This document shows, piece by piece, positions 1 to 62,576 of a DNA stretch of 64,000 nt. Made by a program: the position numbers and the translations under genes. Within the stretch, counting starts at the first letter, position 1. The number at the start of each line of letters is the position of its first letter. This DNA comes from Planctomycetia bacterium (GTDB lineage: Bacteria > Planctomycetota > Planctomycetia > Planctomycetales > Planctomycetaceae), in assembly GCA_026400935.1 (NCBI GenBank), contig JAPLNX010000165.1:2097-66096 (forward strand). The letters are read 5' to 3'. The notes under the pieces were generated by a model. The model had not been told where the DNA came from. It saw only the letters and a list, made by a program, of their open reading frames with translations, and searched no databases.

Positions 1-1250
1 TCACGGCAGCGCAGTGGCTCGCGCTGGGTAAGGAGATCACGACGCCGGATGCCCGCGCGCCGCAGATTCAGGGGAAAGTGATTGCCGTTCTGACTGCGAC
101 AACGAAAGCGGCCGCAGCGAAGCTCGCGACGGCGAATCAACCGGCGGATGCAGAGACGCAGGCGTTGCTCAGCGGGTTGAACGAATTCATTCTCCGCACC
201 GACTGGCATGCGAAGCTCGGCAAGACGACGGCGGACATTGCGGCAGTCGTCGATAGCAAAGTGATCTCGTTCGCGATTGCCGATTATCACGAAGACCCGA
301 AGCAGTGGTCTGACGTGGAATCGCGCATGTTTTTGCGGCTGTTGCTTGAGCATGCGTTTGCGAACGCAATGCCGCGTCGCAACGCGACAGCGGGGCCGCG
401 ACGAACATTGAGTTATCTCGGACGTGGCGACTATTTCGGCGAGATGGGATTGATGACCGGCGAACCTCGTTCAGCGACGATCTACGCTTACGACCATCCG
501 GACGGTGGCGCGAACATGCGTGTGCCGGACTCGCGCACGGGTGCGGTGCCGTCACGTGTTGAGTTAGTGAAGATCAGCAAGGAAGCGTTTCAAAAGCTTT
601 GTGCTCAATCACCAAAGGTGAAGGCCCGCGTCGAAGAGATGATTGTGAAACGCCGCGCGTTCTCCGCACAGCAGATCAAATCGGATGCTTCCGAATTGAT
701 TGCGAGTCACGCTCAATCGCCGGAGTTCGAGCAGCTTGGTTTGATTCAGGGCCAGAAGCTGATGCTGATTGATCTCGATCGTTGCACTCGCTGCAATCAA
801 TGCGTGGAAGCATGCGTCGCGGCTCATGACGACGGTCACACGCGGCTGTATCTCGATGGGCCGCGTTTCGAGAATTTTCTCGTGCCGATCTCGTGCCGAT
901 CGTGCCTCGATCCAGTTTGCATGATTGGTTGCCCGGTTGGGTCGATCAATCGAGGCGACAAGGGTGAGATCGTTATCGAAAACTGGTGCATCGGCTGCGG
1001 CATGTGTGCGGAGCAATGTCCGTATGGCTCGATCGTGATGAACCCGTTGACCAAACCCGCCGATCTTAGTCCTGAAGCACGGAAGGCGCTCGGTGCGGAA
1101 GCGAAGATGAGCACAATCACCGAACAAGCGGTCGTCTGCGATCTGTGTAGCTCGCTCCCCAGTCAAGATCCTTCGTGCGTTTATGCCTGTCCGCACGACG
1201 CGGCGATGCGAGTCCATGCTCAAGACTACTTCATGAGCGGAAAGAGATAG
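1..1250 (+). CDS. cyclic-nucleotide-binding domain / four-cluster [4Fe-4S] ferredoxin fusion protein (5' end outside window)
   Basis: The reading frame is open from nt 3 to the TAG at 1248-1250, so track ORF 78..1250 is only the first in-window start. It has a cNMP phosphate-binding cassette GRGDYFGEMGLMTGEPRSATIYA. It has four Cys groups, CTRCNQCVEAC, CRSCLDPVCMIGCP, CIGCGMCAEQCP and CDLCS...CVYACP, as in NrfC/DmsB-type ferredoxins. Confidence 0.8.
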   Translation, partial: TAAQWLALGKEITTPDARAPQIQGKVIAVLTATTKAAAAKLATANQPADAETQALLSGLNEFILRTDWHAKLGKTTADIAAVVDSKVISFAIADYHEDPKQWSDVESRMFLRLLLEHAFANAMPRRNATAGPRRTLSYLGRGDYFGEMGLMTGEPRSATIYAYDHPDGGANMRVPDSRTGAVPSRVELVKISKEAFQKLCAQSPKVKARVEEMIVKRRAFSAQQIKSDASELIASHAQSPEFEQLGLIQGQKLMLIDLDRCTRCNQCVEACVAAHDDGHTRLYLDGPRFENFLVPISCRSCLDPVCMIGCPVGSINRGDKGEIVIENWCIGCGMCAEQCPYGSIVMNPLTKPADLSPEARKALGAEAKMSTITEQAVVCDLCSSLPSQDPSCVYACPHDAAMRVHAQDYFMSGKR

Positions 1251-1251
1251 C

Positions 1252-3063
1252 GTGTTAATCGACCGCACACACAACCGATGGTTCATGCTCTCGACGGCGA
1301 TCGTTGCGATCGGGGCAGTGGCGTATTCTGTCGAACGGTTGTCGCCACACGGAGCGACCGGTGGCAGCGTGTTGGGGTTAATCTTCGGCATTGTCGGTTC
1401 TGTGTTCATGGTCATTGCCGCGTTACTGGCGGTTCGCAAGAGGTTGCCGACTTGGCGAGTCGGTTCGGCAAAAGCATGGCTGCGAGCACATCTGTGGTTG
1501 GGAACGGTCGGCTTTGTGTTGATCTTGTTTCATTCCGGTTTTGGTTGGGGTGGGTTGCTCGAAAACTTGCTGTGGATTTCGTTTGGTCTCGTTGTCGTGA
1601 CCGGCTTTGCGGGGCTCGCACTGCAACAAGTGATTCCAAAGTTGCTCAGGTCCGAAGTGCCGCTCGAAACGTTCGTCGCACAGATTTCGTTTCTTGCCAA
1701 GACGATGTTGTTCCGAGCGGATCAATTGGTGGCCATGCAAACCGGGCCGCTCGATGTTCCGTTTGAAAAGCTGACTCCGTTTGCGACTGCTGTGCTCAAG
1801 CAACAAGGGGTCTTGAAGCGCGAGTCTGATTTGCCGAAGGAACTCGCGAAGGTTTACGCGAACGTTCCGCAGCCCGAAGGTGAAAAGAAGGGGCATACCG
1901 CTGAGAAGCCTGTAGCGGCTCCGAAGCTCACGGCAACCGAGACACCCGTCGCGGCAACGCCCTCTGCTGCGGCGACGTCAGCGAAACCGACGAGCGAGCA
2001 AGCGGCTCCCGTAACGAAGTCGAAATCGCCGTTGCAATTGATGCAGGAAAAGAAAGCCGCCGCCGCGAAGGAAACAGAGTCGAAAGAAGTCGCGAGCGTG
2101 CCCGCAGGTTCGGTTGCTGAAGCGACTGCGGCAAAGCCGAAATCGCCGCTCGAACTGATGCGTGAGAAAACGGCCGCGAAAGCTGCTGCTGCCGGTCCCG
2201 AAGCAACGACTGAACCTGTCGCAACGCCGGCTGCTCAGCCGAGCGAGAAGAAGCTGTCGCCGCTTGAACTGATGCGAGCGAAGCAGGGGGCGAAACAAAG
2301 TCCGACTGCTGATACCAGCGAATCACCTGTGAATGAAACTGTTGCCGAGCGGCCGAGCGAGAAAAACCTTTCGCCAGTTGAAGCCATGCGGGCAAAGTTG
2401 TCCGCGGCAAAAGGCTCACCGTCTGACAAGCCTGCGGAGACACCGAAGCCGCTGACCGTCGCGGAGAAGTTTGCGACTGGGCAAGTAATCCCACTGGCGA
2501 GCGAGGCGGCGTCAGCCCCCCAGTCTGTTGAGCAAAGTCCCGTACTTGTTGAACAGAGTCTCGTGTCTGATGAGCAAGCCACCGGGGGGCTGACGCCGCC
2601 CCGTTCGCCAAGTGCTGTTGCTGCTCCGCCGATCGTCAAGAAGCCGTTGCCGATTTCCAAGCCAGTCGCAAGTGCGGAAAATGTGGCTGCAACAAGTGCG
2701 GCTGCGAAGCCCCAGCTTGTCGTTATCTCGCCCATTCAAATCGCCGAATTGCGTGACTTTCATTTGAAGATCGTGCGACCGTACTTGGACAGAGGGATTT
2801 CGCCGCAGCATGGTTTAAATGAGTCAATCACCGCTCGAAGATTGTTCGGTCAGTTGAAATCCGACTTACCCGCGGAGTTGCATGAAGTCCTAGAACAGCT
2901 CGCAAGCTGCTGTGAAGAACGTCGGCAATTCGCCGTTCAAAAGCGACTACATCGTTGGCTGCATTGGTGGCTGATTCTGCACATCCCGCCGTCGATCGCC
3001 ATGTTGGTATTGTTTGTCGCTCACGTTTTGATGTCGCTGCGAGTGGTCCCGTTTGGAAGGTAG
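1252..3063 (+). CDS. integral membrane protein with two His-x13-His helices (cytochrome-b / ferric-reductase-like), split by a ~440-aa low-complexity linker
   Basis: GTG start lies 1 nt after the upstream stop. There are four N-terminal TM helices and one C-terminal TM helix. His80/His94 lie in RAHLWLGTVGFVLILFHSGF and His577/His591 in LILHIPPSIAMLVLFVAHVLM. The middle is rich in Ala, Pro, Ser, Lys and Glu. Confidence 0.75.
   Translation: MLIDRTHNRWFMLSTAIVAIGAVAYSVERLSPHGATGGSVLGLIFGIVGSVFMVIAALLAVRKRLPTWRVGSAKAWLRAHLWLGTVGFVLILFHSGFGWGGLLENLLWISFGLVVVTGFAGLALQQVIPKLLRSEVPLETFVAQISFLAKTMLFRADQLVAMQTGPLDVPFEKLTPFATAVLKQQGVLKRESDLPKELAKVYANVPQPEGEKKGHTAEKPVAAPKLTATETPVAATPSAAATSAKPTSEQAAPVTKSKSPLQLMQEKKAAAAKETESKEVASVPAGSVAEATAAKPKSPLELMREKTAAKAAAAGPEATTEPVATPAAQPSEKKLSPLELMRAKQGAKQSPTADTSESPVNETVAERPSEKNLSPVEAMRAKLSAAKGSPSDKPAETPKPLTVAEKFATGQVIPLASEAASAPQSVEQSPVLVEQSLVSDEQATGGLTPPRSPSAVAAPPIVKKPLPISKPVASAENVAATSAAAKPQLVVISPIQIAELRDFHLKIVRPYLDRGISPQHGLNESITARRLFGQLKSDLPAELHEVLEQLASCCEERRQFAVQKRLHRWLHWWLILHIPPSIAMLVLFVAHVLMSLRVVPFGR
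2017..2400 (+). repeat. four tandem ~38-aa coding repeats carrying an SPLELMRxK motif
   Basis: SPLQLMQEK (nt 2026), SPLELMREK (2143), SPLELMRAK (2257) and SPVEAMRAK (2371). The motifs start at aa 259, 298, 336 and 374 of the 603-aa protein. Confidence 0.8.
2495..2610. repeat. imperfect 30-bp inverted repeat (27/30) with 56-nt spacer, embedded in frame in a CDS
   Basis: The arm at 2495-2524 (tggcgagcgaggcggcgtcagccccccagt) matches the reverse complement of 2581-2610. Both strands therefore translate to TGGLTPPRSP: the + ORF and the antisense track ORF 1928..2611. Confidence 0.85.
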
Positions 3064-4692
3064 TTGGTCATGCTGCGTTCGAGCCGAGAACTTTCCAGTC
3101 GTCTGAAAATCGACGGGCATAAAAGCCCGGATCGATTTCGTCGCACGACGTGGTGGTTCGCGTTGTGGGCGGGAGTCGGATCGTTGATGTGGCTGTCGTG
3201 GCAACATGTGCAAGGAGAGAACGCGATCTACCAAGCGGGACCGGTCAGTACGCCGCATCGCTTCATCGAGAACAACTGCGAGAAGTGCCACACGACTTGG
3301 ACACCGCTGCAACGTTTGGTCTCGCTCAGCGATGACCGGCACTCCGTCAAGAATCAGAAGTGTGAACTCTGTCATCGCGTGGCCGAACATCACCACAACC
3401 AATCGCCGCGTCACGAAACGATTTCTTGCGCAGTATGCCATCAAGAGCACGACGGAGCCGAGATGCTCCAGCGTCCGAGCAACCGCTTCTGCATCGCGTG
3501 TCACTCCAAATTGGATTCGCTAGCTCACCCGAACGATTTGCAAGACGAGTCCGTCAAACCTGCCGAGACGTTTGCAAGTAACGTGACTCAGTTCGATCTC
3601 GCCGGCGGACATCCGGAGTTCCGTTTGAAGACACTGCTCGTGCCAGAACACGCGGACGAGAAGCCTGCGAAAGAACACGGAGCGCTCCGCACAGTTGAGC
3701 ATTTTCAGCGACCCGGTGAGACAGAATCGAAATGGCAAGATCGCGGTCGCATTCGGTTCAATCATGCCGCGCACTTGAAGGCCGAACGTGACGCGAAAGG
3801 TGAGTTGGTTTACGGCCTTATCGGCAAGGATCGCAAATTCATCGATTTGTCTCAAAGCTGCGAAAAGTGCCATGAACCAGACAACGAACGGCGCTTTATG
3901 AAGCCGATCTCATTCGAACGACATTGCGGTGAATGTCATCCGCTGCTGTTCGATCACCAACGCTTCCCCGGCCAAAGTGTGCCTCATCAGACGCCCGACA
4001 TCGTGCGTGGTTTCTTGACGGAGACTTACACACTGCAAGCGTTGAAGAACGAAGCGGTCGGCGGATCAGCAAATGAAACCTCGACGAAGAAATCCGAACT
4101 GCCGCGATCAATTCCGGGGCATCGCGATTTTCAGAGTGATTCACAAAAGCTATCGAAAGATCAAGCTCAAAGAGTCGATGATGCTGTCAATCAAGCGGAA
4201 GTAATCATGCAACAGCATCGCCACCGACAGTTCGGATACGAAGCGACCGGCGGATGTCGTTACTGCCATCAAGTCGAGCCGACGGCTGAAAAAGCAAACG
4301 CCGACAAGCCGACAGTCTCGCGTGCCGATTGGAAAATTGTCCCGACCAACATCCCGCAACGGTGGCTGGCACACGGTGAGTTTCATCATGGATCACATCG
4401 CTTGCTGAATTGCGCGGTATGTCACGTCGATGTCGAGAAAAGTAAGAGCACCGGTGACGTGCTAATCCCGTCGATCAATGTCTGCCGCGCGTGTCACTCG
4501 GCTGACCCGTCGCTGTGGTCGGACGCGTTGAACTCCAAGAGTTCAGGCAATGAGTCGCCAAGCCGACTGTCAGAGCACAGCGTGAAAGAACTTTTGGCAA
4601 AGAGTCGGCAAGGTGCGCGCTTCGATTGCATCGAGTGCCACCGCTACCACAACCACCACGGAGAAAAATTGAACGGGCCGTTTACGAGATAG
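3064..4692 (+). CDS. membrane-anchored decaheme c-type cytochrome
   Basis: Ten CxxCH motifs: CEKCH, CELCH, CAVCH, CIACH, CEKCH, CGECH, CRYCH, CAVCH, CRACH, CIECH. N-terminal TM anchor TTWWFALWAGVGSLMWLSW. The start abuts the upstream stop (TTG 3064, alternative ATG 3070). Confidence 0.9.
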   Translation: MVMLRSSRELSSRLKIDGHKSPDRFRRTTWWFALWAGVGSLMWLSWQHVQGENAIYQAGPVSTPHRFIENNCEKCHTTWTPLQRLVSLSDDRHSVKNQKCELCHRVAEHHHNQSPRHETISCAVCHQEHDGAEMLQRPSNRFCIACHSKLDSLAHPNDLQDESVKPAETFASNVTQFDLAGGHPEFRLKTLLVPEHADEKPAKEHGALRTVEHFQRPGETESKWQDRGRIRFNHAAHLKAERDAKGELVYGLIGKDRKFIDLSQSCEKCHEPDNERRFMKPISFERHCGECHPLLFDHQRFPGQSVPHQTPDIVRGFLTETYTLQALKNEAVGGSANETSTKKSELPRSIPGHRDFQSDSQKLSKDQAQRVDDAVNQAEVIMQQHRHRQFGYEATGGCRYCHQVEPTAEKANADKPTVSRADWKIVPTNIPQRWLAHGEFHHGSHRLLNCAVCHVDVEKSKSTGDVLIPSINVCRACHSADPSLWSDALNSKSSGNESPSRLSEHSVKELLAKSRQGARFDCIECHRYHNHHGEKLNGPFTR

Positions 4693-4712
4693 AAAAAGAC
4701 CTGACCACGTTG

Positions 4713-4771
4713 GTAGGACGGGCACTCCTGCCCGTCATCTGACTTTCGACGAGCAAGAGTGCCCGTCCTAC
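4713..4771. repeat. REP-like palindromic element / probable terminator hairpin
   Basis: gtaggacgggcactc (4713-4727) pairs with gagtgcccgtcctac (4757-4771). An inner hairpin gacgggca-ctcc-tgcccgtc lies at 4717-4736. The element sits directly after the decaheme gene. Confidence 0.8.
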
Positions 4772-4814
4772 AAAATCTGAACGCCCACCTTAGGTCGGCA
4801 GCAACTCCACCACG

Positions 4815-6377
4815 ATGTCGCACTTTGCTCCTTTACGTCTGCTGAGCCTAATAGTCGTCGCTGCGATCCTGTTCGCGGCGTTGGGGCGGGAGCGTGTCCA
4901 GACGGCTCCGCCGAACGAATCCAAAGCCAAGATAACAGCAACTCCGCGACTTGTAGGCAGCGCGTCCTGTGCGGCGGCGGCCTGTCATGGTGGGCTGGGC
5001 GGACAGCCGATTGTGGGCGCTGAATACTCCATTTGGTCACAGCGTGACCCGCATTCGCGAGCGTACTCGGTCTTGTTGAATGATCTGTCGCAGCAGATGG
5101 CGAAACGCTTAGAACTCAAACAACCGGCGCATGAGTCTGCCGTTTGCTTGAACTGTCATTCGCCCGTGACGACGACTGCGGAGAAGGCTGTGATGCAGTC
5201 AGCACCGGTTCGCGAACAGCATCTGATCGAGGGTGTCAGTTGCGAGCACTGTCACGGCCCGGCAGAGCATTGGTTGACCGCTCACGTCCGCAAAGATTGG
5301 AAGCCTCGCTCGACTGATGAGAGGCTACGACTTGGATACCGCGACCTGACAGACGTGCTCTCGCGAGCCAACTTGTGCGTCGATTGCCACGTCGGCGGGC
5401 CGGGTCGCGACGTAAATCACGACCTCATTGCGGCTGGGCATCCCCGTCTGTTCTTTGAACTCTCTGCCTTCCACGCCAACTGGCCAAAACATTGGCCAAG
5501 AGAGCTCGTAGGTCGGGCACCCCTGCCCGACCACACAAGCCCGACACGCAAGCGAGGGGTCGAGGAAACAGGGAACGGTAACCAGGGAACAAGAAGCGAG
5601 CAGCGTGCCTCTTCTTTTGAAGCAAAGTTGTGGGCCGTCGGCCAAGTCGTGACGGCTCAGCGTTCGTTGGAGTTGTTGTCTCAGCGTGCGGCGCATGCCG
5701 ATGCAAACCCATCAGCAAATTGGCCTGAATTGGCGGAATGGAATTGCTTCGCCTGCCATCACGATTTGCAAGCCGGCAGTTGGCGTCAGGCACGGGGTCC
5801 GTTAGCGAATGTCAGCCGCGTTAAAGATTCGTTCGTGGGAAACGCTTGGCCGTATGCATTGATTGAACCGCTGGCGATCACGACGAATCATGCGGAACTA
5901 GTCGGTGAGAAATCGTTATGGCAGCCTTTGCGTTCATTGATTGCCAAGTCCGCTCCGCCGCCTGTGCCAATTCAAAAACAGGCTCTAATGATTGCGGCCG
6001 AGCTTCGGGCTTGGGCAAAAGACTTAAATCATCGTGACACCGCCGAACAGCATTTCTCAGCGGCGGCCATCGACAAGCTACAACTCAGTCTGCTTGGTGA
6101 TGTTGGAGCAAAGCTGGTGGCCCAAGACTGGGACTCGGCCACGCAATTGATGCTGGCGCTGACGTCGCTGCATCACGCCAGCATCGCTCTGCGGACGGCA
6201 ACAACTCCGGTGGACGAGCAACGTGATCGCGAGATTCATGCAGTGATCGACTCAATGAATGAGACTTTGAACTTTCCATTGGGGTTTCAAAGCCCACGCG
6301 ATTTCGCAGACAAACCGATCGAACGTTTGCAAACGGATTTGCTCCGGTTGCGAAAACTGTTGACCTCACCGAAATGA
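4815..6377 (+). CDS. pentaheme c-type cytochrome (paralog 1)
   Basis: N-terminal signal-anchor. Heme motifs CAAAACH (Cx4CH), CLNCH, CEHCH, CVDCH, CFACH. Colinear with the next ORF through SCE.CHGPA, AAGHP, FELS.F...PKHW and WPELA...CFACHHDL. Confidence 0.85.
   Translation: MSHFAPLRLLSLIVVAAILFAALGRERVQTAPPNESKAKITATPRLVGSASCAAAACHGGLGGQPIVGAEYSIWSQRDPHSRAYSVLLNDLSQQMAKRLELKQPAHESAVCLNCHSPVTTTAEKAVMQSAPVREQHLIEGVSCEHCHGPAEHWLTAHVRKDWKPRSTDERLRLGYRDLTDVLSRANLCVDCHVGGPGRDVNHDLIAAGHPRLFFELSAFHANWPKHWPRELVGRAPLPDHTSPTRKRGVEETGNGNQGTRSEQRASSFEAKLWAVGQVVTAQRSLELLSQRAAHADANPSANWPELAEWNCFACHHDLQAGSWRQARGPLANVSRVKDSFVGNAWPYALIEPLAITTNHAELVGEKSLWQPLRSLIAKSAPPPVPIQKQALMIAAELRAWAKDLNHRDTAEQHFSAAAIDKLQLSLLGDVGAKLVAQDWDSATQLMLALTSLHHASIALRTATTPVDEQRDREIHAVIDSMNETLNFPLGFQSPRDFADKPIERLQTDLLRLRKLLTSPK
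5508..5532. repeat. copy of the 4713-type hairpin lying inside the cytochrome CDS
   Basis: gtagg-t-cgggca-cccc-tgcccg-a-c compared with the intergenic gtagg-a-cgggca-ctcc-tgcccg-t-c. The a/t to t/a change is compensatory and keeps the stem. It translates as VGRAPLPD and is followed by TSPTRKRG. Confidence 0.75.
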
Positions 6378-8119
6378 AGACATGCATGGAGAATGCTCCC
6401 ATGAATGATGAGTGGAATTGCTTTGTGTCGCACGCGACTCGAGTGTGTCGATGTCTTGTTGATTGTCGCGCGAACCGCGTGCGCCACATCAGTGTTTTCG
6501 CGTTTTTGTTGCTGATGCCGATGACTTTGATCGCTCAAGACGCGACGGTGAAAAGCTCTAATGGCCAGCGGACGTTTCTTGGAGCGGCCAATTGTGTGAT
6601 GTGCCACAACAACGGTTTGCCCAAAGCCGATGATGCAAATGCGGCGGCGTTGGAGGTTCTCGGTTTCACGGGGCTTGCAAATAACAGTTGGGTGACGTTG
6701 GAGGAATTGAAACTGTGGGCCAATCAAGACAAACACTCGCAAGCTTTCACGTCGCTGTTGAATGAACGCTCGCACCAAATGGGGAAGCTGCTGGGTGTTG
6801 CTGAAATTCATCGCGACAAACGCTGCCTCACTTGTCATACCGCGTACCCGTTGACTGCGATGGGAAATGATCCGCACTTGATCACGCCTGAGTTGGTCAA
6901 GAATCTGCGAGTGACTCAAGGGATTAGCTGCGAAGGTTGTCATTCACCGGCTGGAGATTCTCGCGGAGAGGGTGCTGTGGTGACTGGCTGGTTTCAGCCG
7001 CATGCTCAGCGCGACTTGTGGTGGCTCTTGTCCGCGAAGGATAAGCAAGACAAGTTTGGTTTCACCGATATCCGCTCAGCGACCGCCCGCACGCGGCTCT
7101 GTTTAACGTGTCATCTTGGCAACGCAGCCGAAGGGAAAGTGGTTACTCACGAAATGTATGCCGCAGGACATCCACCGTTGCCGGGCTTCGAGTTATCGAC
7201 TTTTGCAGCTCAGATGCCAAAGCATTGGCGAGATTTCGATAAGAAGTCAGAGGCCGTTCGCGATGAGTTCTTGAAGAAGAACATGGATGATGTCTACGGT
7301 CGCGACTCGTTCAAGCTCGACAACTTGCATGAGACGAACAATGTCCTCGTGGCCGCATTGGTGGCGTTCAGCGAGAATCTCAAACTGGCGTCGGCGCTCG
7401 CAGATGAAACAATGACGATGCCGGTGGCTAAGCCCGATTGGCCGGAGTTGGCTCAGTTTGAATGCTTTGCCTGCCACCATGATTTGAAAGATCGAAGCTG
7501 GCGTCAGCGTCGGACGCTGCGCGGTGCTCCCGGTCGCCCGATGCTACGAGCATGGCCAACAACATTGACGAAGCTGGCGATCAAGCGAGCTGGGCACGAT
7601 CCGAAAGAGTTCGATCAACGCTTGCAGGTGATCGAGAAGTTGCTCAGCGAGCAACCGTTCGGACGTCGCGAGCGTTGGCACGCAACAATCCGCCCGTTGA
7701 CCGATTGGCTCGACGAACAAGCGTTGTCGCTCGAACGGAAACCATTGCCGCGCGAAACGGGCTTCGGGTTACTCCGCGAGATTGCTGTCGTCGCGGAAAG
7801 TGATCTGTGGGATTACGACTCGGCTCGGCAACTCGTCTGGGCCGCGCAAACTTTGCGTCGTGAACTATCGAGCGAGCGCAGTGACGAAGCGCTGCGATCG
7901 AAAGTCGCCGCGTTGGAGACATCATTTGCAGAAATCGAAAAGCTCTTCGTGCTCGATCTGATTCAAGGCCGTAAAGCTCAGCAACAACTGCCCGGTTCAA
8001 CAAAGAGCCGTGAAGTTCAAGAAGTCGACCTCGAAAAGATGCTGCCACCAATCGCCAACTACGATGCAGGAGTCTTTCGCGATCAGTTTCACAAACTGGC
8101 GACGAAGCTTACTCCGTAG
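6374..8119 (+). CDS. pentaheme c-type cytochrome (paralog 2)
   Basis: CVMCH, CLTCH, CEGCH, CLTCH, CFACH. The ATG at 6374 overlaps the upstream TGA (ATGA). An in-frame GTG at 6479 would give a cleaner signal peptide (RHISVFAFLLLMPMTLIAQD), so the start is uncertain. Confidence 0.85.
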   Translation: MKTCMENAPMNDEWNCFVSHATRVCRCLVDCRANRVRHISVFAFLLLMPMTLIAQDATVKSSNGQRTFLGAANCVMCHNNGLPKADDANAAALEVLGFTGLANNSWVTLEELKLWANQDKHSQAFTSLLNERSHQMGKLLGVAEIHRDKRCLTCHTAYPLTAMGNDPHLITPELVKNLRVTQGISCEGCHSPAGDSRGEGAVVTGWFQPHAQRDLWWLLSAKDKQDKFGFTDIRSATARTRLCLTCHLGNAAEGKVVTHEMYAAGHPPLPGFELSTFAAQMPKHWRDFDKKSEAVRDEFLKKNMDDVYGRDSFKLDNLHETNNVLVAALVAFSENLKLASALADETMTMPVAKPDWPELAQFECFACHHDLKDRSWRQRRTLRGAPGRPMLRAWPTTLTKLAIKRAGHDPKEFDQRLQVIEKLLSEQPFGRRERWHATIRPLTDWLDEQALSLERKPLPRETGFGLLREIAVVAESDLWDYDSARQLVWAAQTLRRELSSERSDEALRSKVAALETSFAEIEKLFVLDLIQGRKAQQQLPGSTKSREVQEVDLEKMLPPIANYDAGVFRDQFHKLATKLTP

Positions 8120-8163
8120 TGCGGTAGACAGTGGGGAGAACATTCAATTCGTGAGTAATCCGT

Positions 8164-8562
8164 ATGAAGTTTTCTCTCTTAAATATTGGCTACTTCATGT
8201 TTGTTGGGTTGATTGCTGGCGAATTTGCAATCGACCAGCAGAGGAACATCAACGTTGGAAATCTGATCTACGATCAATTTGACGGTCATTTACGCAGCAT
8301 GACAAAGGCTGATGTCACTGAAATCGTCTTTCGAAACGTGCTCACGATGTCGTTGATCGTCGGCATAGTCGCAACGATTGTCTGGATGGCTTTAACCAGT
8401 TTTTCGAAGATCGTTGAGCGACCACGAACGGTTGCCGTCAATGCGATCATTGGCTTATCGATTGGTGCGCTTATTTCAACAACGGTTTACCAAATACTGG
8501 ATGGGTTCGGTGTTTCGATTTCAGATGGGTTCAGGATGCTGTTACGGCCAATAATAGAATAA
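8164..8562 (+). CDS. small hypothetical membrane protein
   Basis: 132-aa ORF with about three hydrophobic helices. It is visibly more AT-rich than its surroundings. No recognisable motif. Confidence 0.45.
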   Translation: MKFSLLNIGYFMFVGLIAGEFAIDQQRNINVGNLIYDQFDGHLRSMTKADVTEIVFRNVLTMSLIVGIVATIVWMALTSFSKIVERPRTVAVNAIIGLSIGALISTTVYQILDGFGVSISDGFRMLLRPIIE

Positions 8563-8563
8563 A

Positions 8564-9736
8564 TCATGGTCGAATCGCGTCCGCAGCAATCGTTCCGATG
8601 CGGCCTGCGAGTGGGTTCACGGAGCCTTTGCCGTCGGGGTGGACTCGATTGCTGAGGAAGATCACGAACAGGCCGGTGTCGGGATCAATCCAAAGAGCTG
8701 TCCCGGTGAAGCCGCCGTGGCCGAAGGCGTAGTCCGACATCGATGCGCCTCGATTGCTTGAGTATCCGGTTTTCATGTCCCAGCCGAGTGCTCGCTTTCC
8801 GGACGGGACGTTGCGGGGGCGCGTCATCTCGGTCCAAGTGACTTCGGACATGATGCGAGTTTCGCCCAGTTGGCCTTTCATCACCATCGCGGCGGCATAC
8901 TTCGCGAGGTCTTCTGCCGTTGAGAACAACCCCGCGTGGCCAGCGATGCCGCCCAGCAGATGGGCTCGCGGATCGTGGACTTCGCCGCGGATGAATTCGC
9001 CGTTTCGCTTTTCCGTCGGTGCGATCCGCAGTCGGAGTTCCGGCTTCGGTTTGAAATCGGTTTCCGACATCCCGAGCGGATCGAACACGTTGGTCTTCGC
9101 AAATTCAGCCACCGAAAGTCCGGAGATGTTTTCGACGAGTTTGCCCAAGACCTCAAAGCCGACGTCGCTGTAAGTGAACTTCACGTTCGGTTCCGCCAAT
9201 GGCTTCAGGCTCGCGATGTTCGACCACGCCTTTTCTGGTCCCTGTAAATAATCCGCAATGCGGTTGTCGGCGATGAGCCCGCCGGTGTGAGTCAGCAAGT
9301 GTTCAATGTTGATCTTCTCTTTGCCGTTATCGGCGAATTCCGGCCAATGCTTGGCAACTGGATCGTCCAATCGCAGCTTGCCCCGTTCGATCAACAACAT
9401 GATGCTCGTTGCGGTTGCGATCGGTTTGGTCAGCGAAGCGAGGTCAAAGATCGTGTCGGTGGTCATTGCCTCGGAGGACGGTTCGAGTTGCCGTTGTCCG
9501 AATGCCTTCACGATTGCCAGTCGATCGCGACGTCCGATCGCGACGACACAGCCTGGCATTTTCTTTTCGGTGAGAGCTTGCTCGACAACTCCGTCAATCT
9601 CTGCCAACTTCGGAGCATCGAAGCCGATATCAGCGGGTGCAGCTAAAGGGAGCCTTGGCGGGGATGCCTCAAGCGTCTCGCACGCAATCAGAACCACTAC
9701 TAGGATAGCGCTCACCAAAAAACGAATTAGAGTCAT
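8564..9736 (-). CDS. serine hydrolase, beta-lactamase/esterase (class C-like) family, exported
   Basis: SxxK motif in ASLTKPIA, YSD (Tyr-x-Asn-like position), HGGFTGT box, N-terminal signal peptide. Confidence 0.85.
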   Translation of the reverse strand: MTLIRFLVSAILVVVLIACETLEASPPRLPLAAPADIGFDAPKLAEIDGVVEQALTEKKMPGCVVAIGRRDRLAIVKAFGQRQLEPSSEAMTTDTIFDLASLTKPIATATSIMLLIERGKLRLDDPVAKHWPEFADNGKEKINIEHLLTHTGGLIADNRIADYLQGPEKAWSNIASLKPLAEPNVKFTYSDVGFEVLGKLVENISGLSVAEFAKTNVFDPLGMSETDFKPKPELRLRIAPTEKRNGEFIRGEVHDPRAHLLGGIAGHAGLFSTAEDLAKYAAAMVMKGQLGETRIMSEVTWTEMTRPRNVPSGKRALGWDMKTGYSSNRGASMSDYAFGHGGFTGTALWIDPDTGLFVIFLSNRVHPDGKGSVNPLAGRIGTIAADAIRP

Positions 9737-22534: not shown

Positions 22535-25498
22535 ATGAGTTTTACGAAACGGATTGAGCAGCACAGTTCTATAAGCGTGCCACAAAAAGGCGCGATCAAA
22601 GCCCCACCGAGCCGTGCATCCGTAGAGCCGTGGCTCGACGGCGTTGTTGGATTACGGATGGTTTGTTTCGCCCTCTGCTTGCTGGCAGTCGGCTGTCTCG
22701 ATGCAGATCACGGCTCCGTTGTCGTGAAGCCAAGACGAGCGAAAGGGACTGCGACCGCGTCGTCTGAAACAGCATCGCCTCGCAAAACCAAGAGCGTGCG
22801 CAAGGCTGATTCCGCTCGCGATGAGAAAGTGCTCAATCATCCGGAACTGCAAGCGGAGTTGGCGCAGGTCGATGATCTGATTCGTACCGTCAGCGGCAGT
22901 GAGGCCGATCAGCCGTCGCGCAAGAAGACTCGAAATGCGGACGAGGACTCAGTCGTTACCGCGTTTGCGGAAGACGTCGTGACGCCAGAAAAACAGACTG
23001 CGAAGAACCCTCGCAAGAATCGACTCGCCAAGGAATCAAGTCCGTATCTTTTGCTGCACGCGACGAATCCCGTCGACTGGTTCCCGTGGGGACCGGAAGC
23101 GCTAGAGCGAGCCAAGAAAGAGAAGAAGCTGATCTTCCTTTCGATCGGTTACAGCAGTTGCCACTGGTGCCACGTGATGGAACGGCTCGTCTTCTCGAAC
23201 GAGCAGATTGCGCGCTTCATGAACGAGAATTTCGTCTGCGTGAAAGTGGACCGCGAAGAGCGGCCCGACATCGACGACATCTACATGACCGCCCTGACCG
23301 TTTACTTTCGGCTGAGCCGTTCTGATCAATCGGGCGGTTGGCCGTTATCGCTGTTCCTGACGCCTGAAGGGAAACCGCTGGCTGGCGGGACGTACTTCCC
23401 GCCGGAAGATCAAGACGGTCGCATGGGCTTCCCGTCGGTGATGAATAAGATCGCGACCATGTGGCGAGATCAGAACGAGGATATGGAAAAGAACGCCGAT
23501 ATGATTACGGCGAACGTCCGCCGCACGATGTCCGCGAAGATTGTGTTGAACGATGTGCCGCTGACAGCAGAACTCGCAGCGACGATCACGACGGCAATCG
23601 CCGAGACTCACGACGCGAAGTTCGGCGGCTTCGACTTCAATCCAGCACGCCCCAACGCACCGAAGTTTCCGGTCCCCAGCAAGCTGAGACTCTTGCTGCA
23701 TCAAGCTCAGCGCGACAGCAATGAGCCGTTGCGACAGAAGGTGACGTCAACGCTCGATGCGATGGCCGCTGGCGGAATTCGCGATCACTTGGCAGGAGGT
23801 TTTCACCGCTACAGCACCGACCGAGCGTGGAAGGTGCCGCACTTTGAGAAGATGCTTTACGACAACGCGCAACTCGCCGACACCTACGTTGAAGCATTCC
23901 GGCAAACAAATCTTCCGATCTATAAAACGATCGCCGAAGAAGTCTGCGACTTCGTCCTTCGCGAGATGACCGACAAGCGCGGCGGCTTCTTTTCGGCGCT
24001 CGATGCCGACAGCGAAGAGGTCGAAGGAAAGTCGTATGTCTGGTCCGAAAAAGAGATCGACAAGCTGCTCAATCCCGGCGATGCGGAAGCGTTCAAACTG
24101 GCTTATGGCCTGACTGTGCCAAACACATTCGAGCCGGGCTTTGTGTTGCATCTACCGAAGCCGCTCGCCGATGTCGCGATTGAATTGAAGCTCGAACCGA
24201 CTGAACTCGAACGTCGCCTCACGACGATGAAACAACGTTTGCTCGCCGTGCGCAACCGCCGACCGGCTCCGCTGTGTGACGACAAAGTATTGACCGGCTG
24301 GAACGGTCTCATGATCAAGTCGCTCGCGAACGCAGGAGCCCGATTCAAACGAGCGGACTACCTCGCCGCCGCCGAACGTGCGGCGGTCTTCGTGCTGACC
24401 GAAATGCGCGACGAGCAAGGCCGCTTGCGTCGCTCGTACCGAGGAAACGTCAGCCCGATCAAGGCGTATCTCGACGACTACGCTTATCTGATTGATGGAC
24501 TGCTCGCACTGCACGTCGCGACTCGCGAAGCAAAGTGGCTGACGGCAGCGACGCGCTTGGCGGACGATCAATTGAAACTGTTTTGGGACGATGTTGCCGG
24601 AGGTTTCTTCTACACGGCGACCGATCACGAAGAGTTGCTCGCGCGATCGAAAGATCGGTACGACTCGGTCGTGCCGTCCGGCAACAGCGTCAGTGTCCGC
24701 AACCTGCTGCGGATCGCGAAGCTCACTGGCAAGAACGAATATCGCGTCAAAGCAGAGCAAACTCTGAAGGCGTTTGCACCGCTGATGAACGAGACGCCTC
24801 ACGGATCGGCCAACATGGCTGTCGCGCTGTTTGAATTCCTCGATCAACCGAACTTGGGATCGACTCGGCGCAGCGTCGATTCCAACGTCGTTCCTGCTAG
24901 TGCCGATGACGATGAGGTTCTTGATGTCGCGTTGAAGCCGAAGCGAGAAGACCTCGGTGCCGGTTTGGGGGCATCGCCGATTGCAGATAAAGCTCCGAAG
25001 AATGATAAGACAAAGAAGATTGACGTCCTTACGGCTGACGCTCATCTCAACGTCGATCGACTTCCGGCGGGGAGTACGTGCCGCGTCGCGATGATCCTCA
25101 ACATCCAAGATGGCTGGCACATCAACCAAAACCCAGCGCAACCCGAAGGCATGTCCGCGACAAGATTCACGATGAATACCAAGCTGGGGACGAAGTTGAT
25201 CGACGTGAAATATCCCAAAGGGCACAAGCTCAATGTTGTTGGTTTCGATGAACCAGTGATGGTTCACGACGGGCAAATCGTGATCTTCGGCACGATGGAG
25301 ATTCCCGAAGTTGCCGCTGGCAAAGTCGAAGAGTTCGAGTTGCTCGTCCGTTATCAAGCATGTAGTGAGTCACGTTGCGAGCCACCGAAGACGTTAAAAC
25401 TCAGCGGAAAACTCGAAGTTGCTCCTGTCGGCGAAAAAGTGAAGGCTATCAACGACAAACTGTTCAACCCACCCAAAGCGACTCCAAAGAAAAATTGA
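22535..25498 (+). CDS. DUF255 thioredoxin-like (YyaL-type) protein fused to a DsbD-N-like domain
   Basis: [16 protein letters not shown] redox motif, a long alpha-helical barrel region (KMLYDNAQL), and a C-terminal segment GWHINQNP...[12 protein letters not shown] typical of DsbD N-terminal-type domains. N-terminal TM/lipobox-like LLAVGCLD. Confidence 0.8.
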
Positions 25499-60526: not shown

Positions 60527-60926
60527 GATGTTTCCTGATGCGAAGCACGAATTAAGGCTGTTGCCGCATAGACCTTGACGGCTAACCTAGCTTCGTCGAC
60601 TCAATGAAACAACGCCGCTTATACCAACATGCCTGGAAGAATAGTTTCGTAGAACGACAAAGCGGCTGATACGTATGCGAGCCACAGCAGCGACTCGCGT
60701 TTTAAGCGATTATCAACGTCACTCTTCCGGTGGTTGGTCACGCATTGAGAATCTCGGTTACGGAGCAATCGAGCGACATAGAGTGGCGTTTCTGGAGATT
60801 CGTACTGGCAGAATTCAATTTGCGTTGGTAAGACTGCGCCACGTTCAAATGATGTCTACGGCTTGGATGCTACCAGTAGTTGGCGATGATGCCGCCCTGA
60901 AGAATGTTGCTCTCATTCGCAGGTGC

Positions 60927-62576
60927 ATGATGCCGGAATTGATGGTATTGGCTTCTTCAATGAAGGGGACTCGCTTCGTGCTGAGTCCGAATCACGATGT
61001 GATCATCGGTCGCGAAGGCTTCTGCGACGTTGTGCTGACCAAGAAGACGGTCTCGCGAAAACACGCGAGAGTTTTCTTTGATGGCGAGCATTACCAGATC
61101 GAAGACTTGGGGAGTGCTCACGGAACGTTTCTCAATAGTCGGCGAGTAACTAAGGCGACTGTCTTGATGGATGGCGATCGCTTCAACGTCTACGACATTC
61201 CGATTGCATTCTGTCAGTCGCCAGAATTGTCGCTTGCTGAAACGACCTCGATAACTCTCGGACTCACAGACGAAGGATTCACTCTCACACCGTTGCCTCC
61301 GACAAATGGTCATTCGGGAGCGATTCGTTCGCAGACAATGTTTACCGGACGACTGCGACAACTGCTGGAAATCACTCGTCGATTGGGAAGCAGTTTACTC
61401 GTCGATGAAATCTTTCCGCGCGTCCTAGACACGTTGTTTGACATGTTCCCGCAAGCGGCGATTGGTGAAATTCAGTTGATTGAACCAGACGGGCGATTGA
61501 ACCCCGTAGCGATGAAGCATGGCCGAGATGACGACAGTTCGATCATCACACGCGTGCCTGTGGGCCATGACATCTCTCTGCGAGTCCTCTCGAATGGGAA
61601 ACCATTGCTTAAGAAGGTCGATCCGAAGCCGCATGAGTCAGTGCTTGATGATGGTGAGGCCGCAGTGATCTGCGTCCCGATGCTCGGCCCTTCGCATACG
61701 AAGCTCGGAACAATCTTGCTCGAAGCGGACGACGACAATCGGACTTTCACTGACGACGATCTCGAACTGGTTGCGGCGGTCGGCATCTTGACCGGGCAAG
61801 CAGTGGAATACGCTCACGCCCACAAAGAGTTGTTGCGAATGGATCAATCGCGACGTCAACTAGAGACCGCTCGTCAGATTCAATTGCGGATGCTGCCACG
61901 CGGCAAACCGGACGTTCCGGGCTATCGCTTTTGCAAATACTACGCGCCGGCAGATGCCGTCGGAGGGGACTATTATTTCTGGGATTCGTTGCCCGATGGT
62001 CGTGTCATCATGGGTGTGGCCGATGCCTGTGGTAAAGGACTGCCAGCGGCCATGATGATCGCGCAATTCGCGACGGAGGTAAGGCACTGCCTGACAACAG
62101 CAGAAACACTAAAGATCGCAATGTTTCGCTTGAATCGGTTTGTTGCCAGTTTGGACGAAGGCTTCATTACTTTTTGTCTGTGTCTATTGGATGTGGACCA
62201 CGGCAAGTTGACCTTGCTGAATGCTGGCCATCCGCCGCCGCTTTGCTGGCGAAAAGCAACGGGAATCGTCGAGCAACTTGGAATGGATCGCAGTACGTTT
62301 CCGCTCGGCATCGCAGAGGACCATGAGTTCCATACTGCCACCGCGTTACTTCAGCCGGGTGACGAAGTTCTCTTTTTTACGGATGGCCTCATCGAAGCGA
62401 TGTCGCCGGACAACAGCCTCTTTGGAGAATCGCGAGTGCTACGTCACATGGCCGCACCACATGATGACTTGCAATCACTCATCGACACGATCATTGCCGA
62501 TGTCGAACGTTTCCGTAGCGGACGCAACCGGTCGGACGACACTTGTCTGATTGGATTCACACGCATCTGCGAGTGA
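60927..62576 (+). CDS. FHA - GAF - PP2C/SpoIIE-type phosphatase
   Basis: FHA: IIGREGFCDVVLTKKTVSRKHARVFFDGEHYQIEDLGSAHGTFLN. A central GAF-like segment. SpoIIE: GGDYYFW...GVADACGKGLPAAMM...FFTDGLIEA. Start chosen among in-frame ATGs at 60927, 60930, 60942 and 60960; the track ORF begins at 60675. Confidence 0.8.
   Translation: MMPELMVLASSMKGTRFVLSPNHDVIIGREGFCDVVLTKKTVSRKHARVFFDGEHYQIEDLGSAHGTFLNSRRVTKATVLMDGDRFNVYDIPIAFCQSPELSLAETTSITLGLTDEGFTLTPLPPTNGHSGAIRSQTMFTGRLRQLLEITRRLGSSLLVDEIFPRVLDTLFDMFPQAAIGEIQLIEPDGRLNPVAMKHGRDDDSSIITRVPVGHDISLRVLSNGKPLLKKVDPKPHESVLDDGEAAVICVPMLGPSHTKLGTILLEADDDNRTFTDDDLELVAAVGILTGQAVEYAHAHKELLRMDQSRRQLETARQIQLRMLPRGKPDVPGYRFCKYYAPADAVGGDYYFWDSLPDGRVIMGVADACGKGLPAAMMIAQFATEVRHCLTTAETLKIAMFRLNRFVASLDEGFITFCLCLLDVDHGKLTLLNAGHPPPLCWRKATGIVEQLGMDRSTFPLGIAEDHEFHTATALLQPGDEVLFFTDGLIEAMSPDNSLFGESRVLRHMAAPHDDLQSLIDTIIADVERFRSGRNRSDDTCLIGFTRICE

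Follow-up and report, generated by a model that had tools for sequence, protein, structure and literature searches.

We analysed a 64,000-nucleotide stretch of DNA, hereafter the window, from a Planctomycetia bacterium (GenBank assembly GCA_026400935.1, contig JAPLNX010000165.1, positions 2,097–66,096, forward strand). At its start lies a cluster of five tightly packed open reading frames (ORFs) on the + strand (window 3–8119), here named g1 to g5. They encode a protein in which domains binding cyclic nucleoside monophosphates (cNMP) are joined to a four-cluster [4Fe-4S] ferredoxin (g1), a membrane protein with two pairs of histidines (g2), a membrane-anchored decaheme c-type cytochrome (g3), and two secreted pentaheme cytochromes (g4 and g5). 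Pfam assigns cNMP_binding and several Fer4 families to g1, multiheme families to g3–g5 and no family to g2, and NCBIfam provides an equivalog for none of the five proteins. An earlier note, made from the sequence alone, had read this layout as an iron–sulfur (FeS) module leading to bis-histidine hemes in the membrane and then to c hemes, some 20 in number, in the periplasm, the FeS part being joined to a cNMP sensor. Of the four findings that the note had named as fatal to its idea, three were looked for and did not appear, and the fourth, an existing description of the cluster, applies in part. The architecture is upheld by the present analysis; the b hemes, and control of the electron flow by nucleotides, are argued below as predictions.

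Conservation and organization of the five-gene cluster

One genome per GTDB species was scanned, giving 244 matching stretches, and 80 loci were fetched; ORFs were called in the fetched loci and then searched with the five window proteins. The order g1-g2-g3-g4-g5 was found on one strand in approximately 30 fully covered Planctomycetota loci, with g2 identity down to about 31%, which bears out the co-conservation in relatives on which the earlier note had made its proposal depend. The same order was present on a 7.8-Mb contig and in the cultured Thalassoroseus pseudoceratinae. Recurrence of the gene order across dozens of genomes, with the conservation of the heme ligands given below, exceeds what chance would produce; the five-gene operon is real and strongly conserved. 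None of the 162 g2 homologues in the protein collection carries a functional name. A search of the planctomycete loci for conserved flanking genes that might encode a donor, acceptor, porin, or cyclase found none, indicating that the cluster is self-contained, and the commonest neighbor in the fetched loci, a DUF1501 gene present in 13 of them, is probably unrelated to it. Elsewhere in the window, no redox or cyclase gene related to the cluster was found. GC content is uniform (0.53–0.58), and a horizontal-transfer island was rejected on that ground.

The junctions described previously were reproduced by the ORF list, with the TAG at 1248–1250 followed by GTG 1252 between g1 and g2, and the TAG at 3061–3063 followed by TTG 3064 or ATG 3070 between g2 and g3, where ATG 3070 is the likely start of g3. 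The ATGA overlap at 6374–6377 is also present, but possibly does not contain the true start of g5, for which the gene caller used ATG 6401. The near-gapless packing that had been claimed for the whole cluster holds at the other junctions but not between g3 and g4, which are separated by 122 nt containing a strong hairpin (inverted repeat I1, window 4713–4771, + strand). This element has a 15-bp perfect stem and a folding energy of −50.5 kcal/mol (z −6.1 versus shuffled sequences), and a search of window positions 1–9000, hairpin included, returned no Rfam match. A classical intrinsic terminator between g3 and g4 was rejected, as the hairpin lacks a T-run and the sites given by a terminator scan were not above those of shuffled sequence. 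The hairpin could be an RNA stabilizer, a processing site, or an element like a repetitive extragenic palindrome. An in-frame 45-nt copy, 71% identical to its left arm, occurs at window 5508–5552 (g4 codons ~232–246), overlapping the start of a ~20-residue insertion in g4, PDHTSPTRKRGVEETGNGNQG (window 5526–5588), that is absent from almost all of 41 g4 orthologues. This looks like the insertion of a small palindromic element into a loop-coding part of g4.

Subunits and their cofactor ligands

The cysteine, histidine, and heme motifs counted in the earlier note were all recovered, apart from a difference at one heme site of g4 that is described below. Only the 3′ two thirds of g1 lie in the window (3–1250, + strand; assigned by Pfam and PDB matches), and comprise the end of the second cNMP-binding domain and the four-cluster [4Fe-4S] ferredoxin. 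A public contig identified through an exact g2 match (L001), which extends 1.5 kb further upstream, supplied the full gene of 755 amino acids (L001 506–2773), whose domain order is two cNMP-binding domains and then the four-cluster domain. The canonical phosphate-binding cassette of domain 2, FGEMGLMTGEPRSATIYA, was confirmed at window 435–488 (+ strand), and the full-length protein carries a second canonical cassette, FGEMSCINRVRRSATVVA, in domain 1. The cNMP_binding family (PF00027) matched full-length g1 with an E-value of 7.5e-24 and 84 bits, and the window part with 34.7 bits, against a cut-off of 27.5 bits. Of 62 orthologues, 56 have the motif GE...R[ST]A[TS] in domain 2 and 56 have it in domain 1, and the cassette Glu and Arg are kept in most of these orthologues, in both domains and across phyla. 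The nearest PDB entries to the cNMP part are the tandem cNMP-binding domains of PKG and PKA-R, and MloK1; the FGEMGLMTGEPRSATIYA stretch itself matches the cNMP-binding domain of the MloK1 channel.

These domains admit another explanation, in which the same electron conduit operates with no cyclic-nucleotide gating and the cNMP folds act as spacers, bind other ligands, or control assembly or localization. Both domains of g1 carry large insertions, because of which Pfam matches them only in fragments, and this would suit such a role, as would the varied ligands bound by effector domains of the CRP/FNR type and the lack of a cyclase gene in the window. Conservation across phyla of the Glu and Arg that contact ribose and phosphate in both cassettes argues against it, as does the match of the domain 2 cassette to the cAMP-binding domain of MloK1, and we consider a non-gating role rather unlikely.

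The ferredoxin part of g1 contains 16 Cys (window 783–1190, + strand; motif count and Pfam) in four groups, CxxCxxCxxxC, CxxCx4CxxxC, CxxCxxCxxxC, and CxxCx9CxxxC, sufficient for four [4Fe-4S] clusters, and Fer4_7, Fer4_9, Fer4_10, and Fer4_11 scored above their Pfam cut-offs. Its best PDB matches were HycB3/HycB4 of the hydrogen-dependent CO2 reductase and HycB of formate hydrogenlyase, and the proteins closest to it, HycB, HydN, and the N-terminus of AegA, are electron wires of the cytoplasm. A twin-arginine (RRxF) motif was sought in full-length g1 and 61 orthologues and found in none; the FeS domain is therefore cytoplasmic. The periplasmic placement of NrfC/DmsB-type proteins, to whose cysteine arrangement the earlier note had likened that of g1, is ruled out by the missing motif together with the closest matches, which are to cytoplasmic HycB and HydN. 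Directly 5′ of g1, at the contig end, is a fragment of a DDE_3 (IS630-like) transposase (L001 3–326, ~1.2–1.5 kb upstream of the window start).

g2 (window 1252–3063, + strand) encodes a membrane protein of 603 amino acids, a putative di-heme b subunit judging from an AlphaFold2 model and conservation. Five transmembrane helices were predicted (residues 6–29, 40–60, 73–95, 102–131, and ~566–598), together with an N-terminus inside, a cytoplasmic helical domain, and a disordered linker of 290 residues. The predicted local distance difference test (pLDDT) score was 82–97 in most 10-residue blocks of the helices and the cytoplasmic domain, with dips to ~65 at loops. Each of two predicted helices bears a pair of histidines spaced i, i+14: His80 and His94 in helix 3 (window 1489–1533, + strand), and His577 and His591 in the C-terminal helix (window 2980–3024, + strand). 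Across 68 homologues, H94, H577, and H591 were invariant and H80 was at least 90% conserved; both pairs are kept in the Sphingobium homologue of 296 amino acids. The charge distribution places the N-terminus and linker inside and, combined with the model, has both His-bearing helices running from inside to outside, an orientation in which an inner heme could be ligated by His80 with His577, and an outer one by His94 with His591.

The cytoplasmic linker of g2 (window 1855–2730, + strand) is of low complexity and carries four copies of a K-SPLExMR-K motif ~38 residues apart, with no tandem repeat at the DNA level. Copy number varies from 0 to 13 across planctomycete orthologues; the motif does not occur in other phyla, whose g2 forms of ~285–310 amino acids lack the linker. 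A partner protein may dock at these motifs. The family defined by the N-terminal domain of g2 comprises 657 clusters at 50% identity with E ≤ 1e-10, most members being ~290 amino acids long.

The proposal that g2 belongs to the ferric-reductase/DUF4405 group has sub-threshold Pfam matches behind it, all of them in relatives and none in the window protein. When the 68 family members were scanned singly, matches below the cut-offs recurred: 14 members matched DUF4405 (best E 9.6e-5), 12 matched Ni_hydr_CYTB (best among relatives 1.4e-4), and 6 matched Ferric_reduct (best E 0.0013, and 0.0011 elsewhere among relatives). In the short g2 forms, these matches fall on the His-bearing helices. Membership is thus favored by the histidine pairs and by the weak matches in relatives, and disfavored by the sub-threshold scores and by the number of helices. 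From its sequence, g2 is plausibly a very distant member of the DUF4405/MsrQ-like/PepSY-like heme b class. Ni_hydr_CYTB is the family of FdnI and HyaC, and the matches to it in g2 relatives would also fit a quinone-linked protein, that is, a quinol dehydrogenase or quinone reductase of the FdnI, HyaC, NarI, or CbcL b-domain type that joins the menaquinone pool to periplasmic cytochromes, or NAD(P)H to quinone, with g1 serving as a regulator or as an additional point of entry. A four-cluster ferredoxin working with a di-heme b protein likewise recalls FdnH/FdnI. Yet neither a quinone-site motif nor an NrfD or NarI family match was found with Pfam and NCBIfam, and a cytoplasmic FeS subunit, together with the NAD(P)H modules found in relatives (see below), makes up a complete path without quinone; a quinone-linked role thus appears decidedly unlikely.

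g3 (window 3064–4692, + strand; assigned by motif count and conservation) encodes a c-type cytochrome of the decaheme kind: it contains precisely ten CxxCH motifs, and ahead of them lies an N-terminal segment that is first basic and then hydrophobic. The ten motifs are 96–100% conserved, and eleven further conserved His are sufficient for bis-His ligation of all ten hemes. The N-terminal segment (residues ~28–47, window 3145–3204) was taken to be a membrane anchor, because its sequence is conserved (RRxxWWLALWAGVGSLxWL), basic residues precede it, and the Sphingobium homologue has a cytoplasmic FHA-like domain ahead of it. Profile matches of g3 in the PDB were to c7-type arrays (GSU1996, 3ov0), NrfB, ActA of alternative complex III, and chain A of 6r2q, which we take to be MtrA, the label in the file being different.

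g4 (window 4815–6377, + strand; assigned by Pfam Cytochrome_C554 and heme motifs) and g5 (window 6374–8119, + strand; start uncertain, at 6374, 6401, or later) encode paralogous secreted pentaheme cytochromes that share 33% identity over 278 amino acids (E 4e-42). Both match Cytochrome_C554 (PF13435; cut-off 20.8 bits), g4 with an E-value of 1.5e-12 and 48.7 bits and g5 with 36.0 bits. Their N-terminal hydrophobic segments are of the signal-peptide type and variable among orthologues, and the first ~35 residues of g5 are not conserved in orthologues. The N-terminal part of g4 is c554-like, whereas its C-terminal part is helical and bears a CFACHH site. The five heme sites claimed for g4 are present, but only four of them are CxxCH; the remaining one is CxxxxCH (C52AAAACH58), and this C52–H58 site is 100% conserved in 42 orthologues. 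The g4 heme sites and six extra His are 95–100% conserved, and the five CxxCH motifs of g5, with six extra His, are 100% conserved. An AlphaFold2 model of g5 (pLDDT 81, predicted template modelling score 0.84) is helical with one small hairpin only. A Foldseek search of the PDB with this model gave no significant match, and the best entry, Algp7 (3at7, probability 0.30), offers a weak lead toward an imelysin-like helical domain. The C-terminal ~300 residues of g4 and g5 gave no family, profile, or fold match, PDB profiles returning heme-motif noise only. In g3–g5 as a whole, the heme-binding Cys and His are 96–100% conserved in orthologues, and each protein has conserved His in sufficient number to give all its hemes bis-His ligation. 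This is what would be expected of wire cytochromes, and catalytic hemes in g3–g5 were rejected on the same ground.

Input modules in relatives and a candidate mechanism

The g1-g2-g3 core was also found in Acidobacteriota, Methylomirabilia, Wallbacteria, and Sphingobium, and outside Planctomycetaceae it is retained with a short g2. In three Acidobacteriota loci (L071, L073, and L077), the g1 homologue gains a NuoG-like N-terminus ([2Fe-2S], NADH-G 4Fe-4S region, and dicluster), and directly upstream of it lies a fused NuoE-NuoF-like gene encoding a thioredoxin-like 2Fe-2S domain, a Complex1_51K FMN/NADH site, and an NADH_4Fe-4S domain. On plasmid pMSHV of Sphingobium herbicidovorans (L083), a protein of 825 amino acids combines Pyr_redox FAD/NAD(P)H, two cNMP-binding, and four-cluster domains, and is followed by the 296-amino-acid g2 homologue and a decaheme. 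Presence of an NAD(P)H-oxidizing module fused to or adjoining g1 in these four non-planctomycete loci points toward export of electrons from NAD(P)H in the cytoplasm. Pyr_redox was detected only in L073 (Pfam) and as the L083 fusion, with an ORF of equal length at the same position in L077; a g4-like gene stands beside the Pyr_redox gene in L073, and the gene layout is the same in L077. Large proteins of 1050–1490 amino acids, grouped in one cluster, flank nine fetched loci and occur in Sphingobium as well (L083 16034–20023; L071 12659–16192; L035 17664–22139). The L035 and L083 members carry LVIVD repeats and the L071 and L083 members ten CxxCH motifs, and these LVIVD proteins may be alternative outputs or terminal modules.

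Every lineage keeps the cNMP-binding domains, irrespective of the kind of input module. In the Acidobacteriota and Sphingobium architectures, they stand between the NAD(P)H-oxidizing module and the FeS wire, which is the place where a conformational gate would act. A CHASE2 adenylate/guanylate cyclase adjoins the core in L077 (9838–12210; Pfam), and ORFs that cluster with it by BLASTP also adjoin the cluster in L060, L073, and L075; the cyclase is a possible local source of the nucleotide signal. Both the retention of the domains irrespective of input and the cyclase-type genes speak against the non-gating explanation given above.

FHA or FHA-like (Yop-YscD_cpl) domains are fused N-terminally to a g1 homologue in Terriglobia (L071 7356–9935) and to the Sphingobium decaheme (L083 12288–14087), which hints at phospho-threonine-dependent regulation.

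We propose that the products of the cluster may assemble into one membrane-spanning conduit that carries electrons outward and is gated by cyclic nucleotides. For this mechanism in full, we see the case for and against as evenly balanced; the conduit taken alone would be likelier, and the gating less likely. Electrons would enter g1 in the cytoplasm, run along its four [4Fe-4S] clusters, and pass to two b hemes stacked across the membrane in g2, the inner one at His80/His577 and the outer one at His94/His591. The decaheme g3, anchored in the membrane, would receive them from the outer heme and hand them to the soluble periplasmic pentahemes g4 and g5. In the relatives, the donor would be NAD(P)H, acting through the fused or adjoining flavoprotein module; in planctomycetes the donor would lie outside the cluster, and could be ferredoxin or a flavoprotein encoded elsewhere. 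The cNMP domains of g1 would most likely bind cAMP or cGMP and switch the flow on or off, by altering the docking of the FeS domain to its donor or to g2. Such a gate makes sense because export past the quinone pool dissipates membrane potential. Outward flow would be favored by the potential of NAD(P)H and by the membrane potential, and, as no porin is present, the final acceptor is probably periplasmic.

Several points weigh against this proposal. The window g2 matched no Pfam or NCBIfam family above cut-off and no heme family, and had no match in the PDB, either by sequence profile or by fold (Foldseek with the AlphaFold2 model). It has five predicted helices, versus six in ferric-reductase/DUF4405 proteins, a difference that the conserved anchor of g3 might make good by supplying the sixth. 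The planctomycete cluster encodes no donor, no catalytic end, no acceptor, and no porin, and with neither donor nor catalytic end encoded, the direction and purpose of the flow are extrapolated from distant relatives. Folds of the cNMP-binding type can take other ligands. The gap with its hairpin could separate two transcription units, and seven loci, probably representing one clade (L004, L005, L006, L009, L011, L013, and L014), contain g1–g4 and lack g5.

The missing terminal reductase has a bearing on direction as well, since it would fit an inward flow, in which an external donor such as Fe(II), or periplasmic redox sensing, reduces g1 as a redox or nucleotide signaling protein. The FHA-like fusions (g1 in L071, g3 in Sphingobium) and the cyclase and EAL genes nearby could be read in the same way. 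However, bringing electrons into the cell against the membrane potential, to FeS clusters of low potential and NAD(P)+, is bioenergetically unfavorable, g1 has no recognizable output domain, and ~20 hemes would be a large investment for a sensor. We regard inward flow as highly improbable.

Returning to the outward conduit, a more specific form of the gating can be put forward tentatively, in which the cluster is a second-messenger-gated wire: cAMP or cGMP would allosterically open and close a direct path from FeS clusters through heme b to heme c, bypassing the quinone pool. If so, reducing power could be dumped or delivered across the membrane within milliseconds, and the clusters would constitute a modular family spanning at least five phyla, with inputs that are NuoEF-like, of the Pyr_redox type, or not encoded, and swappable outputs in the form of c554-like pentahemes, a porin-cytochrome, or LVIVD multihemes. 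To our knowledge, no bacterial electron-transfer chain has been documented to be under the direct allosteric control of a cyclic nucleotide, and our literature search found no case; known control is transcriptional, through CRP/FNR, or is exerted by Ca2+ in eukaryotic NOX5/DUOX. The proposed mechanism, if true, would represent a widespread quinone-free route for cytoplasmic reducing power across the membrane, and would bear on how Planctomycetota, Acidobacteriota, marine Proteobacteria, and Nitrospirota deal with metals, nitrogen oxides, or oxidants in the periplasm or outside the cell. Cultured hosts of the family are available in Sphingobium herbicidovorans and Thalassoroseus pseudoceratinae.

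Some further features of the loci were noted. Six of the g5-less loci (all but L011) have, after g4, a gene clustering with a metallo-beta-lactamase-fold gene (Pfam, L006 copy). In a Lacipirellulaceae metagenome-assembled genome (MAG; L075 7362–9839), a protein of 825 amino acids with an HbpS-like (heme-degrading protein-like) domain precedes g2 and replaces g1, and g3–g5 are on the opposite strand. Lake MAG contigs titled Candidatus Kuenenia stuttgartiensis or Chitinophaga (L005, L006, L013, L020, L022, and L072) carry planctomycete-type clusters, and these titles look like taxonomic misassignments. Elsewhere in the window are a DUF255/thioredoxin protein of 987 amino acids with a DsbD_N domain (22535–25498) and an FHA-GAF-SpoIIE phosphatase (60675–62576), neither with a synteny link to the cluster.

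Comparison with known systems

The layers of the cluster, periplasmic multiheme c, membrane cytochrome b, and cytoplasmic FeS, are those of Tmc, Hmc, and DsrMKJOP. In these systems, however, the b subunit is of the NarI/HdrE type and the cytoplasmic subunit is an HdrD-like CCG protein, neither of which was matched here in Pfam or NCBIfam; they also lack a nucleotide sensor and conduct electrons inward, for the reduction of sulfite. The DsrO and QrcC matches of g1 reflect the ferredoxin fold only and are far below the cut-offs. NOX5 and DUOX, Ca2+-gated NADPH oxidases of the ferric-reductase-domain superfamily, resemble the proposed conduit in that two b hemes, ligated by two pairs of His 13–14 residues apart, take NAD(P)H electrons across the membrane under the control of a ligand-binding domain. 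In Sphingobium, in contrast to NOX, it is the cytoplasmic subunit, not the membrane subunit, that carries the fused flavin/NAD(P)H domain. Further differences from NOX are the FeS wire between flavin and heme b and the c-type cytochromes, instead of O2, as acceptor; from NOX5, the sensor is a cNMP-binding domain in place of EF-hands, and g2 has five helices, with Ferric_reduct matches that are sub-threshold and fall in its relatives. The cluster fails the defining features of both the Tmc/Hmc/Dsr and the NOX families.

Individual subunits also have counterparts. DUF4405, MsrQ-like, and PepSY-like (FoxB) proteins have been shown or argued to be transmembrane electron carriers with heme b and four central His (PMC11334425), and g2 is like them in being a helical membrane protein with four conserved central His. 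Among Pfam families, theirs provide the best matches of g2 relatives, weak as these are. Systems of the DUF4405 type feed flavinylated or molybdoenzyme partners, whereas g2 is paired with an FeS protein and multiheme cytochromes. The likeness of g1 to HycB, HydN, and HycB3/HycB4, its best sequence matches, lies in the cytoplasmic wire of four [4Fe-4S] clusters. Wires of the HycB type join two soluble catalytic subunits, whereas g1 carries tandem cNMP-binding domains in the same chain and has a membrane protein as its partner, and it misses all NCBIfam equivalog cut-offs by a wide margin. Decaheme wire cytochromes are shared with MtrCAB, and the combination of di-heme b with multiheme c is shared with CbcL. 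Unlike MtrCAB, CbcL, and ImcH, the window cluster has no porin, outer-membrane cytochrome, or quinol-oxidizing domain, and its electron source would be a cytoplasmic FeS protein rather than the quinone pool.

The closest description is that of the ptdABCDEFG operon, named in a bioRxiv preprint (10.1101/2023.11.21.568154, version of February 2024). There, PtdA is given as a pentaheme that has a beta-sandwich, PtdB as a porin, PtdC as an FAD/NAD(P) oxidoreductase, PtdD as a tetraheme, PtdE as a protein that binds cyclic nucleotides and contains 4Fe-4S clusters, PtdF as a membrane protein resembling ferric reductases, and PtdG as a periplasmic decaheme (10.1101/2023.11.21.568154). The operon is reported from Alpha- and Gammaproteobacteria, Nitrospirales, Planctomycetota (MAGs), Acidobacteriota, and others, and its function is called "completely unknown", with a porin-cytochrome role suggested (10.1101/2023.11.21.568154). 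By architecture, and compared by description only, g1, g2, and g3 correspond to PtdE, PtdF, and PtdG. g4 would be a tetraheme if only CxxCH were scored, and may thus correspond to PtdD. The accessions of ten g1-homologue clusters showed no coincidence with Table S7 of the preprint. The window cluster lacks the PtdB porin, the PtdC oxidoreductase, and the upstream PtdA pentaheme, as well as an upstream tetraheme, and genes of the PtdA, PtdB, and PtdC types are absent from the window and from L001, with no conserved flanking gene in the 80 loci. It further differs from ptd in having two c554-like paralogues after the decaheme, and from the ptd description in the long repeat-bearing linker of g2. 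The earlier note had held that no characterized complex has this composition; none was found, but the core trio had already been described as PtdE/F/G. The novelty of the cluster is weakened accordingly, and the window presents a variant of ptd without porin or FAD oxidoreductase. If the gated outward conduit proposed here is true, it would in turn provide a testable mechanism for the ptd operon.

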